Assembly (NCBI GenBank): GCA_965243105.1
Contig: CBDEUC010000001.1
Coordinates: 346,093-410,092 of the forward strand
From: Gammaproteobacteria bacterium
GTDB lineage: Bacteria; Pseudomonadota; Gammaproteobacteria; Eutrophobiales; Eutrophobiaceae
Reading direction: 5' to 3'
DNA: 64,000 nt
The notes below the pieces were generated by a model. It worked only from the letters and a program-made list of their open reading frames with translations. It was not told the origin of the DNA and made no database searches. Position numbers and translations under genes: made by a program. Positions 53,037 to 60,018 of this stretch are shown one piece after another; positions within the stretch are counted from its first letter, which is position 1, and the number at the start of each line of letters is the position of its first letter.

Positions 53037-53828
53037 TTATTCTTCCGGCAGCTTGATCCTGCTGTCAGATATTCCCAGTGAACTGGCAAATTCAACCAGG
53101 CGGCGTTGCTTGCTGAGAGAGGAGTCATCGTCCACCAGCCCGGACAGTGCCTGCTCTTCAAGCAGTTGCCGGTAAATGGCATTGGTCAGTTGTCCCAGTG
53201 CCACGCTCTCATCGGTGGCGGTGATTTCCTCGTTGGACAGTGCGGACCAGTCCTGGCTGAATTGGCCGAGGCTGTCTTCTGACCAGTTGTTGTTTGCCAG
53301 GAATTCCTTGATAAGCTCTTCGGCTTTTCCAGCGGCGGAGGACACACTCTCGCTCGCCGCAGGCTCAGCCCCGGATGACATAGCTTGAGCCATATCGCCT
53401 GTAGAAGAAGCGTCAGCTTTTTCATCCTTGCCGCCCATCATGCCGACAACGGCAACGCCAATGAGAACCACGGCGACGACAAGGCCAATGATGATTCCCT
53501 TGTTGGATGATTTTTCTGCGGCCGCTGCTGTTGCTGGCGCTGTCGGGGCAGGGGCGGCTTCGCTCTTTGCCGCTGCAGCATCATCTGCGCTGGCAGCGCC
53601 ACCCCCCTCTGCGGCAGGCTTGCGTTTTAAATCCTCGCGACGTTCAGTGGTATCCAGGGATTCCGGTTCAGGTGGCTGCACAGGGGGTGGATAATCGATT
53701 TCAGCCAGTGATACGTTGCCGGCAACGATACCCTGCAAAAGCTCCGCCCTGGATTTGCGATAGTCGTCCTTTTCCAGGTTGCCCAGCGAGTATTGCTTGG
53801 CCAGTTGGCGCAGGGTTTGATTTGCCAT
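53037..53828 (-). CDS. Hypothetical bitopic membrane protein with N-terminal SHOCT-like motif
   Basis: TLRQLAKQYSLGNLEKDDYRKSRAELL; Pro/Ala linker; one TM (IIIGLVVAVVLIGVAVV); helical C-domain. Confidence 0.8.
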   Translation of the reverse strand: MANQTLRQLAKQYSLGNLEKDDYRKSRAELLQGIVAGNVSLAEIDYPPPVQPPEPESLDTTERREDLKRKPAAEGGGAASADDAAAAKSEAAPAPTAPATAAAAEKSSNKGIIIGLVVAVVLIGVAVVGMMGGKDEKADASSTGDMAQAMSSGAEPAASESVSSAAGKAEELIKEFLANNNWSEDSLGQFSQDWSALSNEEITATDESVALGQLTNAIYRQLLEEQALSGLVDDDSSLSKQRRLVEFASSLGISDSRIKLPEE

Positions 53829-56800: not shown

Positions 56801-58309
56801 CAGGATACCGGCGGCGATAACAAAAGGGTTCTTGTGCCAGGTAGCCTTACCCTGGACTTCATCAATGAAGTGTTCAACGGTAGGGCTTCTGTCTTCGCGT
56901 TTAAAAGCAACTGCACGCCTGAGCGCACGATTTTGTTTCTTGTTTAATCCCTTGACCGGTGCGGGTACAAGACCATTTTCCAGTGCCGTTGTCGCGGGTA
57001 ACTTGTTAAACGGATGTTTTCCTGTGAGCAGCTCGTAGGCCACGCAACCAAGTGCGTAGGTATCATCACGGGTATCAGGTTCTTCACCCTGTAACATCTC
57101 AAGGGAGGCGTAGGCCGGTGTTAGTGCACCGAGCTGGCCCGGATCGAAAAGCGTTTTTTCCACTTCACCGGTAACCGGGTTCTTAACGGCACGTGCGATA
57201 CCAAAGTCGAGGGTTTTTACCGTGCCATCGTTACAGTAAAACGCGTTACCGGGTTTGAAGTCGGAATGCACCAGTCGCAGGTTATGTGCATAGGTAAGGC
57301 CTGCGCCAAGTTGCTCGATAATCTTGAATGCTTCATCAAAGGGGAGGCCGCCCTGTTTCTTTACATGCTTCTTAATGTAGTCCTTGAGCTCCATGCCCTC
57401 CATGAGCTCCATGGTGATATACACCGGAGTACCCGGACCACCGACGCGGTCAAAGTCATAGATGGTTGCAATGTTCGGGTGTGCCAGTTTTTGCTGGCGT
57501 GACGATTCTCGCTGTAGCGAGATAAAGGCTTCAGGGTGATCCTTGAAGTCCTCGTTGAGAAGCTTGATAGCAACGTGGGGTTTCTTGTCCCTGGCTTCTT
57601 CCTTTAGCAGGTCGATGGCCTTGAACACCTTACCCATGCCACCAATACCGAGAACGCTAAGCAGTTTAAAACGCTGCTTGATGATATCGCCTTCACCCAG
57701 TTCCTTGCCGGGCGTGGCGCCACCACCGGCCTGGGGTGGTTCAAAGCCGGTACCTGCAGGCCCCGTACCACCTGTTGTTTCGGCCTGGGTAAAACCGGAG
57801 CTGAGATCGAAATCCACGCCGCTCGTATCGGTTGAACTACCGCCGGTTCTTTCTTCCTCGCTCATCACCTGCGTGGCACCATCGTCCTGCACCACGGTGG
57901 AGTCTTCGCTGCCTACCGCGCCGGCGTTATTGGCTACGGTCTTGTCTTCATCGATGGCGGCGTTGTTGGCAACCGTCTTGTCTTCGTCGATGGCGGCGTT
58001 ATTGGCTACCGTCTTGTCTTCATCACCGGCAGGCATATCTTCCTGTGCGAACACGGTTGCATCACCTTCGGCAGATCCGCCTTCGGTTGCCGCAGCGTTT
58101 TCGCGTCGGAACTGGTTAATCTGTGCCTTGATCCCGGTGTAACTTTCGTCACTGATGCTGCCCTGTTCCCTGGCCTCATCAAGTTGGGTCAGCATCTTTG
58201 TTGCAAACTGGGGATTGGTATTCAGCAGTTTGTCGATTTGTTTCGCCAGTGCATCGGCACTGAGCTTGCCTGAACCCAGTGCCTCCAGGGCAGTTTTAAA
58301 ATCAGCCAC
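53849..58309 (-). CDS. Membrane Hanks-type Ser/Thr kinase with large helical periplasmic region and C-terminal FGE-sulfatase-like domain
   Basis: LGIGGMGKV, VAIK, HSDFKPGN, DFGIA, TPAYAS, D.YALG; TM FVIAAGILLVVGLIAI; C-term HNEPV.GVS..QA.EYA.WLS, RIPS.AEW, NGWGL...GNV.EWV, GFRLV. Confidence 0.93.
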   Translation of the reverse strand: MADFKTALEALGSGKLSADALAKQIDKLLNTNPQFATKMLTQLDEAREQGSISDESYTGIKAQINQFRRENAAATEGGSAEGDATVFAQEDMPAGDEDKTVANNAAIDEDKTVANNAAIDEDKTVANNAGAVGSEDSTVVQDDGATQVMSEEERTGGSSTDTSGVDFDLSSGFTQAETTGGTGPAGTGFEPPQAGGGATPGKELGEGDIIKQRFKLLSVLGIGGMGKVFKAIDLLKEEARDKKPHVAIKLLNEDFKDHPEAFISLQRESSRQQKLAHPNIATIYDFDRVGGPGTPVYITMELMEGMELKDYIKKHVKKQGGLPFDEAFKIIEQLGAGLTYAHNLRLVHSDFKPGNAFYCNDGTVKTLDFGIARAVKNPVTGEVEKTLFDPGQLGALTPAYASLEMLQGEEPDTRDDTYALGCVAYELLTGKHPFNKLPATTALENGLVPAPVKGLNKKQNRALRRAVAFKREDRSPTVEHFIDEVQGKATWHKNPFVIAAGILLVVGLIAINPALDYMQRIKNDEIVAEMNQGNKQLMVAKLDEIRGMDQADQTFITTEAKQAIQDYFAAEIAQHINTSGDNYNFPKAAEVLTEVAYFYPESVFLAEQTEEIDTNKKQKVGELYQSYIAALDPKAAQENPDVIDSTKDILEIIRTKIDPAHPLLDDPRPSNAYRLAAEEAFSSGNFEQALAFVTSGLASAPDDVRLTDLQTKVNNAITVAQLNETLGAAQAEMTSMAAFENYKDDIITLADLSSTSESPVLQTLTDQLKSSVDTELKSILKDGNRDDAVALAENYGGLLSSLQLGRELVQVRLAHLSGAERTAAVQEFVGSDKAIIEEKLAAPALDDPAWESELLASIRQLDSFQSEDESVGADLQGYRDSIAQLYVEQADAIIEEERFDAATALVNRAERLAPGSSLLANARTKITSTKNEIERLARIADLKEQFSFNVDADRVTQASRIFTELQSLVPDDPLITTEGPAKLADSYSRLAQRRGDQSDFGAAFQLAQAGLNFAPDNSELTRQKNEYEVEVNIAELSDLFSNAVGLNVDDVSARVTQIETYGSGRYSEFLSSSEAALSQRINDLLATDEAAAAVLANDAIAVFEGSTVLANLAAQVGKVEDPEQLAPATAAYQDRDLGEAQRILLTIPAEQSGHPKVAQLRAQLESDMREANAIYENAKKIHEEGLAINERDKNARTAKRDEGLAVLKNAQALWANNRDFAALSRQLSGLVITVMKREEEISFAAPTTGDGGADDSGKKAEKDLSQMEWSPTPSGRECAPNMAGHGKRSKAACYDLVFTGWRGPVMVVIPAGGEVAKPFAIGRYEISVADWSKYCALSGKCKPETDKAKHNEPVRGVSLAQAREYAAWLSERTGKTYRIPSKAEWTHAANAAGKQPPKDVNCRVVLGDSMLKGSGIVDIKQGAPNGWGLRNYVGNVQEWVDDGGSTIAAGGAFSDAHAKCEISLQRPHDGDADETTGFRLVLEEVG
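57923..58024 (-). repeat. 36-bp coding tandem repeat x3 (DEDKTVANNA)
   Basis: Units at 57923, 57959, 57995 differ only at synonymous positions. Confidence 0.95.
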
Positions 58310-58342: not shown

Positions 58343-59077
58343 TTAATCTACGTCAATAATGATCGCAGTCACATTATCACCCGCACCACGGTCGAGTGTT
58401 TGCTGGATCATTTTTTTACAGCATTCTTCCGGAGTTCCTTCTTTCATCATTTCTTCGAACTCAAGGTCGTTCGTATGCTTGGTCAAACCATCACTGCAAA
58501 GCAGGTAGCGGTCACCACTTTTCATCTCCTGGATATCCATATCAAGAAAGAGGTTGTCAGCTGCACCCACGGCGCGGGTTATCATGTTGCCGTGTGGATG
58601 AACTGCGGCTTCCTCGCGCGAGATCAATCCCTGTTCAACGTAAACTTCCACCTGCGAATGATCGGTGGTCATTTGTCTTAATTCGTTATCGCGTAAGCGG
58701 TACAACCTGCTGTCACCTGCCCAGGCATAAAGGCAATACTTTCCAAAGCTCAGCATCAATACCACGGTACTACCGATGGTGACTTTCTTCTCCGCTTCTC
58801 TTGCCTTTGCCACGAGCTTCCTGTTGACATCAAGCAGGCGTTCTTCAATGTCATCGATGTAGCTTTCAAGTTTCACACCCTCGTGAACCTTCTTCATCGC
58901 TTCAACGATCATCTGGCTGGCAACATCGCCCTTGGCGTGTCCGCCCATGCCATCAGCAACAACCCAGAGACCGATTTCCTTGCGATCAAGCATCGCGTCT
59001 TCGTTGTGCTTACGCGCCTTACCAACGTCGGTTATGCCATAGGAGTTGACACTCATGGACTGTACCGAATCATTCAT
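58343..59077 (-). CDS. PP2C/PPM family Ser/Thr phosphatase
   Basis: TDVG..R..NED, VADGMGGH, GDSRLY, DHS, LLCSDGL, DNVT. Confidence 0.96.
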   Translation of the reverse strand: MNDSVQSMSVNSYGITDVGKARKHNEDAMLDRKEIGLWVVADGMGGHAKGDVASQMIVEAMKKVHEGVKLESYIDDIEERLLDVNRKLVAKAREAEKKVTIGSTVVLMLSFGKYCLYAWAGDSRLYRLRDNELRQMTTDHSQVEVYVEQGLISREEAAVHPHGNMITRAVGAADNLFLDMDIQEMKSGDRYLLCSDGLTKHTNDLEFEEMMKEGTPEECCKKMIQQTLDRGAGDNVTAIIIDVD

Positions 59078-59115: not shown

Positions 59116-60018
59116 TTAAATTTCATGGGCAAAGGTAACGATCTCTGTTGGCGATTCGTTAAACGCTTTCCCCAGGCTTATCTGTCCACGGCCCTGTAGC
59201 GGCATTTCTTCCCGTCTTAAAAATTCCTCGTCGGAATTTTCAATCAGCACGTGCGTTCCGTTAGTGCTCTGGTCAATGATAAAAAACTTGTCCCGGCGTA
59301 GCTCGATACGAACGTGCTGGCGTGATGCCATCTTTTCATTGACAGGCAGGTCACATGCGTTGCTTCGACCCATCATCAGGCCGGATCGTGCTTTGTCCAT
59401 GACAATGTCCTGGCCGTTGTAACTCACGCGCAGTTTTACTTCCGGTTTCATGTCTTCTTCCATGAGACCGGTTGCCATGCGAGTGACGTCTTCTTCCTGC
59501 CAGATAATTTCGTAGATCTCGATCTCTTCCTGCTTACCCTTGATAGGCGCGCGGTCTACAAAGCGGGTGGCAGCGCGCAGCATCGGCGCAAGAAGATCAA
59601 CGCTTGATTGCGTGGTGATAATTTGTCCGCCCTTGGCCTGGGCTGCCATTCGGGCTGCAACGTTTACAGCATCACCAAACACATCGCCGCCTTCCATGAT
59701 GGCCGGACCAAAATGAAAACCGACGCGAATTTGGAGCTTGATGGAATCACTGACACCCTCGGTGATGTCTTCCTCGAGTTCTTCATGCATTTCCATCGCA
59801 GCGTTGGCTGCATCATCGGCGGTGGGGAAGGTGCACATGATTTCGTCACCGATGGTTTTGATCACCGTGCCGCTGTGATTTTTCGTTACCCCGGTCAGCG
59901 TATCGAGACATTCTGATACCTTCACCCTGGCGGTAGCATCACCCAGTGTTTCAAACAGGCGTGTGCTGCCGCTCACATCGGCGAAAAGGATTGCAAGGTT
60001 GGTTGTTTTTGGCGCCAT
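59116..60018 (-). CDS. Class III adenylate/guanylate cyclase with C-terminal FHA domain
   Basis: FADVSGST, IKTIGDEIM, RVGFH.G, DVFGDAVNVAARM; FHA: MGRS..CDL, SRQH, DQSTNGT. Confidence 0.95.
   Translation of the reverse strand: MAPKTTNLAILFADVSGSTRLFETLGDATARVKVSECLDTLTGVTKNHSGTVIKTIGDEIMCTFPTADDAANAAMEMHEELEEDITEGVSDSIKLQIRVGFHFGPAIMEGGDVFGDAVNVAARMAAQAKGGQIITTQSSVDLLAPMLRAATRFVDRAPIKGKQEEIEIYEIIWQEEDVTRMATGLMEEDMKPEVKLRVSYNGQDIVMDKARSGLMMGRSNACDLPVNEKMASRQHVRIELRRDKFFIIDQSTNGTHVLIENSDEEFLRREEMPLQGRGQISLGKAFNESPTEIVTFAHEI

Follow-up and report, generated by a model that had tools for sequence, protein, structure and literature searches.

Repeatedly amplified acidic threonine motifs in the linker of a gammaproteobacterial receptor kinase, candidate ligands for an operon-encoded FHA-cyclase

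A 64,000-nucleotide stretch of DNA from an uncultured marine/sediment gammaproteobacterium (assembly GCA_965243105.1, contig CBDEUC010000001.1, positions 346,093 to 410,092 of the forward strand; hereafter, the window) encodes on its minus strand a 1486-aa receptor Hanks-type Ser/Thr kinase, and the cytoplasmic linker of this kinase contains a 36-bp tandem repeat. The repeat multiplies one of a set of acidic, threonine-centred motifs that the linker carries throughout the kinase family. The motifs are under selection at the peptide level, are specific for Thr, lie in a disordered segment and have been amplified recurrently, and the kinase is part of a conserved operon with a PP2C-type phosphatase and a soluble adenylate cyclase whose C-terminal FHA domain and catalytic residues are intact. 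The linker motifs are very probably functional Thr-centred linear motifs, and they are likely phospho-acceptors. We further infer from sequence that the motif Thr residues are phosphorylated and bound by the FHA domain, with an effect on the cyclase. The full chain, from autophosphorylated linker Thr via docking of the cyclase FHA to an altered cyclic AMP (cAMP) output, is a reading with good indirect support that we favour slightly.

The repeat encodes a threonine motif under selection

Tandem Repeats Finder placed the repeat at positions 57922-58024, with a period of 36 bp (2.9 copies, 89% matches, score 178). In frame, the three units of the assembly span 57917-58024, corresponding to aa 96-131 of the kinase (Table 1). 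They have 30 nt (10 codons, DEDKTVANNA) in common, within which four sites vary (GAT/GAC, ACG/ACC, GTA/GTT and AAT/AAC), all four at third codon positions and all synonymous. The synonymous share of the possible single changes in these 30 nt is 20% (27% with transitions weighted), and four synonymous changes out of four would be expected under neutrality with P ~0.002-0.005. The claim of an earlier note on this DNA, that the units differ at synonymous sites alone, thus stands for 10 of the 12 codons and fails for the last two codons of unit 3, where GCC ATC is replaced by GGC GCG (AI to GA); these non-synonymous differences mark the edge of the repeat. In the closest relative (G001; 95-98% identical), the two visible units show three further synonymous and no non-synonymous differences from the window.

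The triplication of the DEDKT unit is a recent tandem event, and the 3 x 36-bp repeat most likely reflects the triplication, specific to this lineage, of one of the short linear motifs found across the family. A role of the repeat at the DNA or RNA level was rejected because the variation among units is purely synonymous. Two plus-strand open reading frames (ORFs) over the repeat (57543..58142 and 57832..58119) were discarded as antisense artefacts; for the minus-strand frame, orthologs number in the hundreds. The G001 contig (C113, CAZXDV010000113.1; L021/L037) ends inside the 36-bp array, which hints that the assembly broke there because of the repeat or because the copy number is heterogeneous in that metagenome.

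The kinase consists of an N-terminal helical domain, the linker with the Thr motifs, the kinase domain, a transmembrane (TM) helix, a helical periplasmic region of ~800 aa and an FGE-sulfatase-like C-terminus (Pfam FGE-sulfatase, aa 1314-1442, E 5e-15). The single hydrophobic TM helix (~aa 495-515) follows the kinase domain, which puts the N-terminal 490 aa in the cytoplasm and the other ~960 aa in the periplasm. In an AlphaFold2 (AF2) model of aa 1-510, made as a single chain from a 64-sequence alignment, the linker (aa 79-211) has a predicted local distance difference test (pLDDT) score of ~30, which places all of its six acidic-x-Thr-hydrophobic motifs in an intrinsically disordered cytoplasmic segment. 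These motifs lie within aa 82-149 and centre on T85, T100, T112, T124, T138 and T146. The model of this single, unphosphorylated chain contains no contact between linker and kinase domain.

To follow the motifs through the family, we collected ~170 orthologs from 40 related genomes, 107 database proteins and 80 species-representative genome loci, the sources being uncultured gammaproteobacterial metagenome-assembled genomes (MAGs) throughout. Two core motifs are near-universal, the first of them just after the helical domain. T85 in core motif 1 is Thr in 63 of 64 aligned orthologs (one Ala, no Ser), and F87 is present in all 64. T146 in core motif 2 is Thr in 60 of 64 (again no Ser) and V148 is kept in 54 of 64, with a consensus of T-[QVR]-V-[ML]-x-[ED]-[ED]-E. 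At both core motifs the candidate ligand residue is accordingly Thr rather than Ser. FHA domains are pThr-specific (pThr, phosphothreonine), and strict Thr, never Ser, is what an FHA ligand requires. Taken with the synonymous-only differences among the units and against G001, the retention of Thr bears out the selection on the peptide that the earlier note had proposed, and the flanking acidic-x-Thr-hydrophobic motifs it had named (GDAT85VF, EDST138VV and DGAT146QV) are all present. Distant kinase homologs (33-40% identity) likewise retain the helical domain and the linker with Thr motifs.

Two other conserved motifs occupy the C-terminal part of the linker (aa 165-187, positions 57749-57815, minus strand), i.e., VDFD[IL]S (D168 in 61/64) and TGPxGT (T182, G183, P184 and T187 each in at least 60/64), and neither was ever part of a tandem array. 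A position-specific profile around all linker Thr residues was uninformative, being dominated by the conserved TGPxGT region.

Recurrent amplification of threonine motifs in the family

An unbiased tandem-repeat scan detected arrays in 28 of 145 distinct linkers. In every one of the 28, the repeated unit holds one Thr-hydrophobic motif, usually after two acidic residues, and nearly every copy has Thr at its centre, the rare exceptions being Ala. At least 12 unit types were found, with periods of 8-30 aa and a maximum of 11 motifs in one linker. Examples include EEKTVIGG (seven copies), GDGDATQVMDAAG (five), DSEDATAINQN (eight to nine), SEDKTVQSGGDDFD (four), ESEEATFVP (four), SEDSTEIND (three to four) and DDATVLASDSTKP (three). 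In no case did the repeat consist of the C-terminal half of the linker or of the motif-free stretch that separates the core motifs. Mapped on a tree built from the N-terminal and kinase domains, with the linker excluded, the presence or absence of arrays required 16 changes, as compared with 27-30 in five of 200 label shuffles. Given 28 arrays, their differing units and the 16 changes on the tree, amplification was recurrent and independent, and it always involved the Thr motif.

The number of motifs differs accordingly among relatives. Of 106 linkers, 66 have exactly the two core motifs, 32 have 3-11, and four have one as counted with the search pattern. Within the genus, the D[ED]DKT[VI] unit is single in three relatives (G002, G004 and G005); G003 has two copies, G001 two or more and the window three, so the comparison of repeat number across relatives reveals variation both within the genus and family-wide (1-11 motifs per linker). 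That the copy number is tunable is shown here on an evolutionary scale, between species. The units are imperfect, with 89-92% (about 90%) identity over the shared 30 nt, which is below that of typical contingency (phase-variable) loci.

The arrays could be considered functionless products of neutral slippage or duplication in a low-complexity linker under little constraint, since disordered linkers tolerate insertions; linker length among the orthologs runs from ~100 to 207 aa, and 66 of the 106 linkers have no extra copies. However, the differences among the units (4/4) and against G001 (3/3) are synonymous, the arrays include the Thr motif in 28 of 28 cases and never repeat the spacer or the C-terminal half of the linker, and the [DE][DE]xT-hydrophobic core persists between diverging spacers. 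We regard a purely neutral origin as very improbable.

An operon with a PP2C phosphatase and an FHA-cyclase

The genes for the cyclase-FHA protein, the PP2C and the kinase follow each other in this order on one strand (Table 1), as they do at all 52 species loci with a full upstream flank, and the PP2C is directly upstream of the kinase at each of these loci. The same order was seen in 21 of 21 relatives' genomes with both genes on one contig. Kinase, PP2C and FHA protein are hence encoded together in the window and at 52/52 loci, in agreement with the FHA-cyclase partner that the earlier note had named. FHA is the only conserved domain known to interact with Ser/Thr protein kinases (STPKs) in bacteria, and its pThr-binding blocks are defined as GR, SxxH and NG (PMC4238996). 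These blocks are intact and invariant in 59 cyclase-FHA sequences (G217-R218, S232-R233-Q-H235 and N253-G254).

The cyclase half is equally complete. Pfam assigned aa 4-169 to Guanylate_cyc (E 4e-20) and aa 216-283 to FHA, the nearest solved cyclase structure is Ma1120 (4wp8, E 6e-19), and the catalytic residues are invariant, namely D14 and D58 (metal), K54 and D112 (ATP), and N119 and R123 (transition state). Between the two domains, the pattern WQ[EQ]ED[VMI]T[RK]MA was present in 120 of 120 cyclase-FHA orthologs with T179 invariant, and this Thr is a candidate phospho-acceptor. The AF2 model has both domains at high confidence and aa 177-191 at a pLDDT below 50. Proteins with this cyclase-FHA architecture are very numerous (at least 7953 at E <= 1e-20), and a literature search found no characterised one.

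The kinase domain (Pfam Pkinase, PF00069, aa 215-441) scored E 5.6e-35, or 121.5 bits against a curated cut-off of 31.7. Residues G221-x-G223-G224-M-G226, K249, H348, S349, D350, N355 and D368-F369-G370 are invariant in 64 sequences. The catalytic Asp is preceded by the invariant S349 instead of Arg (H348-S349-D350), which assigns the kinase to the non-RD subclass. Non-RD kinases are often independent of activation-loop phosphorylation. The activation loop here has G381, E382, E384, K385, T386, L387, F388 and D389 invariant in the same sequences, and the resulting acidic-K-T-hydrophobic string resembles the repeat. A conserved activation-loop Thr is unusual in a non-RD (HSD) kinase and may have been the template for the linker motifs. 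A 9-bp period with 3.7 copies at 57381-57413, also reported by Tandem Repeats Finder, encodes MELMEGMEL in the kinase domain; it is conserved in the ortholog consensus and, on that comparison, is not a recent repeat.

A fourth gene, for a 263-aa single-pass membrane protein, follows the kinase, and no Pfam family was found for its product. The N-terminal four-helix domain of the kinase, conserved in all orthologs, also had no Pfam family, even at a relaxed threshold. SHOCT (PF09851) was rejected for this domain, as it reached 14.5 bits against a cut-off of 27 (E 0.03, aa 40-64); the stretch behind this sub-threshold match reads G-x-I-S-x-E-x-Y-x-x-x-K. The start of the 263-aa protein (53649-53828, minus strand) has G-N-L-E-K-D-D-Y-R-K-S-R, akin to that pattern.

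Binding without phosphorylation would be another way to use such motifs: acidic-T-x-V/I peptides could form beta-strands that add to the N-terminal domain, the PP2C or the 263-aa protein. The motifs are indeed rich in the beta-branched residues T, V and I with acidic flanks, like other strand-addition motifs, and where the central Thr is occasionally replaced, it is by Ala and not Ser. On the other hand, they sit in a kinase that adjoins phosphatase and pThr-reader genes, the activation-loop Thr has the same surrounding grammar, and the acidic cluster ahead of the Thr agrees with the preference for acidic residues on the N-terminal side that Prisic and colleagues are said to have described in 2010 for mycobacterial Hanks kinases. 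Strand addition therefore appears quite improbable as compared with a phosphorylation-based role.

Several MAG records with the operon (L037, L049, L083, L103 and others) are titled 'Klebsiella pneumoniae', 'uncultured Enterobacteriaceae', 'Gemmatimonadota' or 'Planctomycetota'. These labels look unreliable, as in operon and neighbouring genes the records match the same family of uncultured gammaproteobacteria.

Table 1 Features of the kinase operon and of the Thr-motif linker in the window (positions in the 64,000-nucleotide stretch).
Feature	Position	Strand	Basis or remark
Single-pass membrane protein, 263 aa, fourth operon gene	53037..53828	-	Follows kinase in 19/19 relatives' loci
Receptor Hanks-type Ser/Thr kinase, single-pass, 1486 aa	53849..58309	-	Pfam; orthologs 47-95% identity
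Kinase catalytic domain, aa 215-473	56891..57667	-	Pfam; non-RD H348-S349-D350
Activation-loop segment E382-V-E-K-T386-L-F-D389	57143..57166	-	Acidic-K-T-hydrophobic like repeat; low AF2 confidence
Disordered cytoplasmic linker, aa 79-211 (~130 aa)	57677..58075	-	AF2 pLDDT ~30; rich in A, G, T, D, E, S
Core motif 2, DGAT146QVMSEEE	57851..57883	-	Family-wide Tx[VI][ML]..EE
Motif EDST138VVQD	57884..57907	-	Read from linker sequence
Repeat unit 3, 3' edge of array	57917..57952	-	DEDKTVANNAGA = DEDKT124VANNAGA; also present in G001
Repeat unit 2	57953..57988	-	DEDKTVANNAAI = DEDKT112VANNAAI
Repeat unit 1	57989..58024	-	DEDKTVANNAAI = DEDKT100VANNAAI
Core motif 1, GDAT85VFAQED	58037..58066	-	Family-wide [DE][SA]TVF[AS]Q[DE]
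N-terminal four-helix domain, aa 1-76	58082..58309	-	AF2 pLDDT 92-97; helices 2-12, 18-31, 33-48, 54-70
PP2C-type Ser/Thr phosphatase, 244 aa, presumed eraser	58343..59077	-	Pfam PP2C_2, E 3e-13
Soluble class III adenylate cyclase with C-terminal FHA, 300 aa, presumed reader/output	59116..60018	-	Pfam
Cyclase-FHA inter-domain linker W173-QEEDVT179RMATG184	59467..59502	-	Candidate phospho-acceptor

The same motif grammar in other proteins of the genome

When the genome was scanned in six frames (5795 ORFs of at least 100 aa) for clustered [DE][DE]xT-hydrophobic motifs, the kinase ranked first. The second rank was taken by a vWA-TM-FHA protein (658 aa; G000 C3:206961-208934, minus strand, outside the window), whose acidic C-terminal tail contains DDETLVR, EDETLLP, EDETLMR and DDMTIRK. 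In total, the motif occurs next to the FHA domain in five of the seven FHA proteins of the genome. Acidic-Thr-hydrophobic thus looks like a general phospho-acceptor and FHA-ligand grammar of this organism, of which the kinase linker would be the densest instance.

A second vWA-like TM-FHA protein (C1, FHA at 543935-544129) ends in LEDDTAMQI. Of the five proteins with a motif beside the FHA domain, a fusion of FHA to a putative ATPase part (FHA at C3:2225011-2225205, minus strand) has FEDMKTVIG just after the FHA domain, and a small protein with an N-terminal FHA (C3:2210930-2211118, minus strand) has DDEFEKTMII, with a Hanks kinase beside it (C3:2212248). The latter two may be further kinase/FHA modules with the same motif grammar.

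With seven FHA domains and ~14 Hanks kinases in the genome, and with a grammar common to several FHA proteins rather than private to the operon, the linker motifs could be docking sites that another FHA protein reads, the cyclase-FHA being only a substrate, or that another kinase writes. Yet the operon linkage with the cyclase-FHA is universal, this protein is better conserved than the kinase in the same genomes (55-91% against 47-69% identity), and even distant homologs keep the linker and share their genome with a cyclase-FHA. A reader or writer from outside the operon seems improbable on these grounds.

Proposed mechanism and points against it

In the mechanism that we propose, a periplasmic cue would be sensed via the helical stalk and the FGE-sulfatase-like domain and activate the kinase. 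The kinase would then autophosphorylate the linker Thr residues, which match the sequence around its own invariant activation-loop T386, and the FHA domain of the adenylate cyclase, whose gene lies two genes upstream, would bind the resulting pThr motifs. Because class III cyclases must dimerise to be active and each ortholog has about two or more motifs, the array would cluster cyclase chains, bringing at least two of them together at the membrane. In addition or instead, the array might present the EEDVT179RMA linker of the cyclase to the kinase for a GarA-like pThr-FHA switch. Clustering or the T179 switch would change the cAMP output, and the PP2C encoded between the cyclase-FHA and the kinase would reset the system. 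More motif copies would mean a higher valency, which would have changed repeatedly in evolution.

A number of points weigh against this mechanism. Phosphorylation and FHA binding are deduced for organisms that are all uncultured MAGs, and the six other FHA domains and ~14 Hanks kinases of the genome could supply the reader and the writer. The kinase is non-RD, which makes the analogy with T386 indirect. Many FHA domains read the residue at pT+3, but this position is not conserved among the six motifs (N, A, Q, M, A and D), so the motifs as they stand cannot be matched to an FHA specificity. The AF2 model of the cyclase-FHA, a single chain, left the protein's own EEDVTRMA motif undocked from its FHA domain, a result that we take as evidence neither way given the kind of model. 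Finally, a shuffle test of motif enrichment in the linkers, which are related sequences, counted 303 Thr motifs against 78 +/- 9 in shuffles, and the Ser control was enriched as well (210 against 86). This statistic is weak and was not relied on, because the Ser control is raised by other conserved linker motifs (SDFFDIS and similar) and because the sequences are related.

The lack of a conserved pT+3 residue would also be compatible with pThr sites that stay internal to the kinase, where they could form a tail for autoregulation or a multisite substrate sink, the latter setting a threshold through competition with the real substrate, e.g., T179 of the cyclase, with no FHA docking. The motifs match EKT386LFD and EEDVT179RMA as competing substrates would, and copy number would tune a buffering capacity equally well. 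What speaks against a purely internal role is the strict Thr at the core positions, expected of an FHA ligand and not needed for a mere phospho-acceptor, as well as the FHA-bearing partner in the operon at 52/52 loci and the similar motifs beside FHA domains in other proteins of the genome. Such a role is unlikely in our view, and we retain docking of the cyclase FHA on the phosphorylated linker as the preferred reading.

A bolder form of the docking mechanism, which we offer tentatively and consider rather doubtful, takes the linker as an evolvable valency dial, in which every acidic pThr motif would recruit one FHA-cyclase chain. The kinase would then be a phosphorylation-gated scaffold that dimerises or clusters the cyclase at the membrane, and lineages would have independently re-set the gain from receptor to cAMP. 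It is similarly tentative that duplication and deletion of motifs, from 2 to 11 per chain in ~16 events across the family, would have been the way in which this dial was turned.

Comparison with known systems

The closest precedent is the STPK-FHA signalling of mycobacteria (PknB, PknF and PknH with GarA, FhaA, Rv1747 and EmbR), which shares with the system described here a Hanks kinase with Thr sites, putative ones in our case, in a disordered segment outside the catalytic core. There, the kinase autophosphorylates Thr residues, an FHA partner encoded nearby docks on the pThr and is itself phosphorylated, and the PP2C PstP reverses the modification (PMC4238996). Clustering of kinase and FHA genes has been described too (PMC4238996; see also PMC3138270). 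In contrast to mycobacteria, the sites here are in an N-terminal linker, repeatedly amplified and variable in number, the FHA partner is fused to an adenylate cyclase, and the kinase is non-RD with an FGE-sulfatase-like sensor.

Two mycobacterial proteins invite a closer comparison. Like GarA/OdhI, which has ETTSVF in GarA, the cyclase-FHA has its invariant EEDVT179RMA in a flexible segment beside the FHA domain, and core motif 1 of the kinase ([DE][SA]TVF[AS]x[DE]) resembles ETTSVFRAD. The GarA motif, however, is N-terminal and serves to regulate metabolic enzymes, whereas the motif here is between the cyclase domain and the FHA, and the two proteins have no sequence homology beyond the FHA fold. 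As for Rv1747, Heinkel and colleagues reportedly described in 2019 a module of two FHA domains and a linker with pT152 and pT210, whose multivalent contacts drive higher-order assembly. Rv1747 owes its valency to two FHA domains and two pThr per chain, whereas here there are 2-11 putative pThr motifs per chain and a partner with one FHA domain and one candidate Thr.

The H1 type VI secretion system (H1-T6SS) of P. aeruginosa (PpkA/PppA/Fha1/TagR) likewise comes from a Gram-negative bacterium and unites a receptor Hanks kinase, a PP2C and an FHA protein in a single locus, and its TagR is an FGE-sulfatase-like periplasmic component. The TagR-like domain is a separate protein there and is fused to the C-terminus of the kinase here, where T6SS genes are absent and the output is a cyclase. 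In the T6SS the pThr ligand is on Fha1 or TssL (PMC3953482), in contrast to the repeat array on the kinase that is the candidate ligand here.

A similar design, with no homology, is known from the eukaryotic DNA-damage response, in which the phosphorylated SDT repeats of MDC1 are multivalent ligands for the FHA domain of NBS1. Both have tandem acidic Thr motifs in a disordered region; those of MDC1 are eukaryotic, written by CK2 at an S-D-T-D consensus and doubly phosphorylated, unlike the motifs described here.

Signalling by pThr and FHA is thus known, and what sets the present case apart are the amplified N-terminal sites of variable number, the FHA domain fused to a cyclase and the TagR-like domain fused to the kinase, with no T6SS. 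A literature search found no description of a cyclase-FHA/PP2C/FGE-kinase operon and no tandem pThr-motif arrays in a bacterial kinase, and it did not confirm an FHA domain in cyanobacterial Cya1, the term 'forkhead-associated' being absent from the papers listed. In the Atlas of bacterial STKs, whose text does not mention a cyclase, FGE-sulfatase is given as one of the architectures of the 'Proteo1' family.

Implications

To our knowledge, little is known about how Hanks kinases select or hold their partners outside actinobacteria and T6SS. The family described here offers a readable code for this, [DE][DE]xT followed by a hydrophobic residue, which recurs in the activation loop, the kinase tail, the operon partner and beside other FHA domains. 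Provided that these motifs are pThr ligands, they would supply a first mechanism for the uncharacterised cyclase-FHA proteins and a simple sequence rule to predict FHA ligands in gammaproteobacterial genomes. They would also constitute a natural valency series of 2-11 sites for multivalent pThr-FHA control of the output of a second-messenger enzyme. Should the more tentative valency dial prove true, the linker would be a bacterial counterpart of the MDC1 SDT-repeat and Rv1747-type assemblies, with signalling gain tuned by repeat number.

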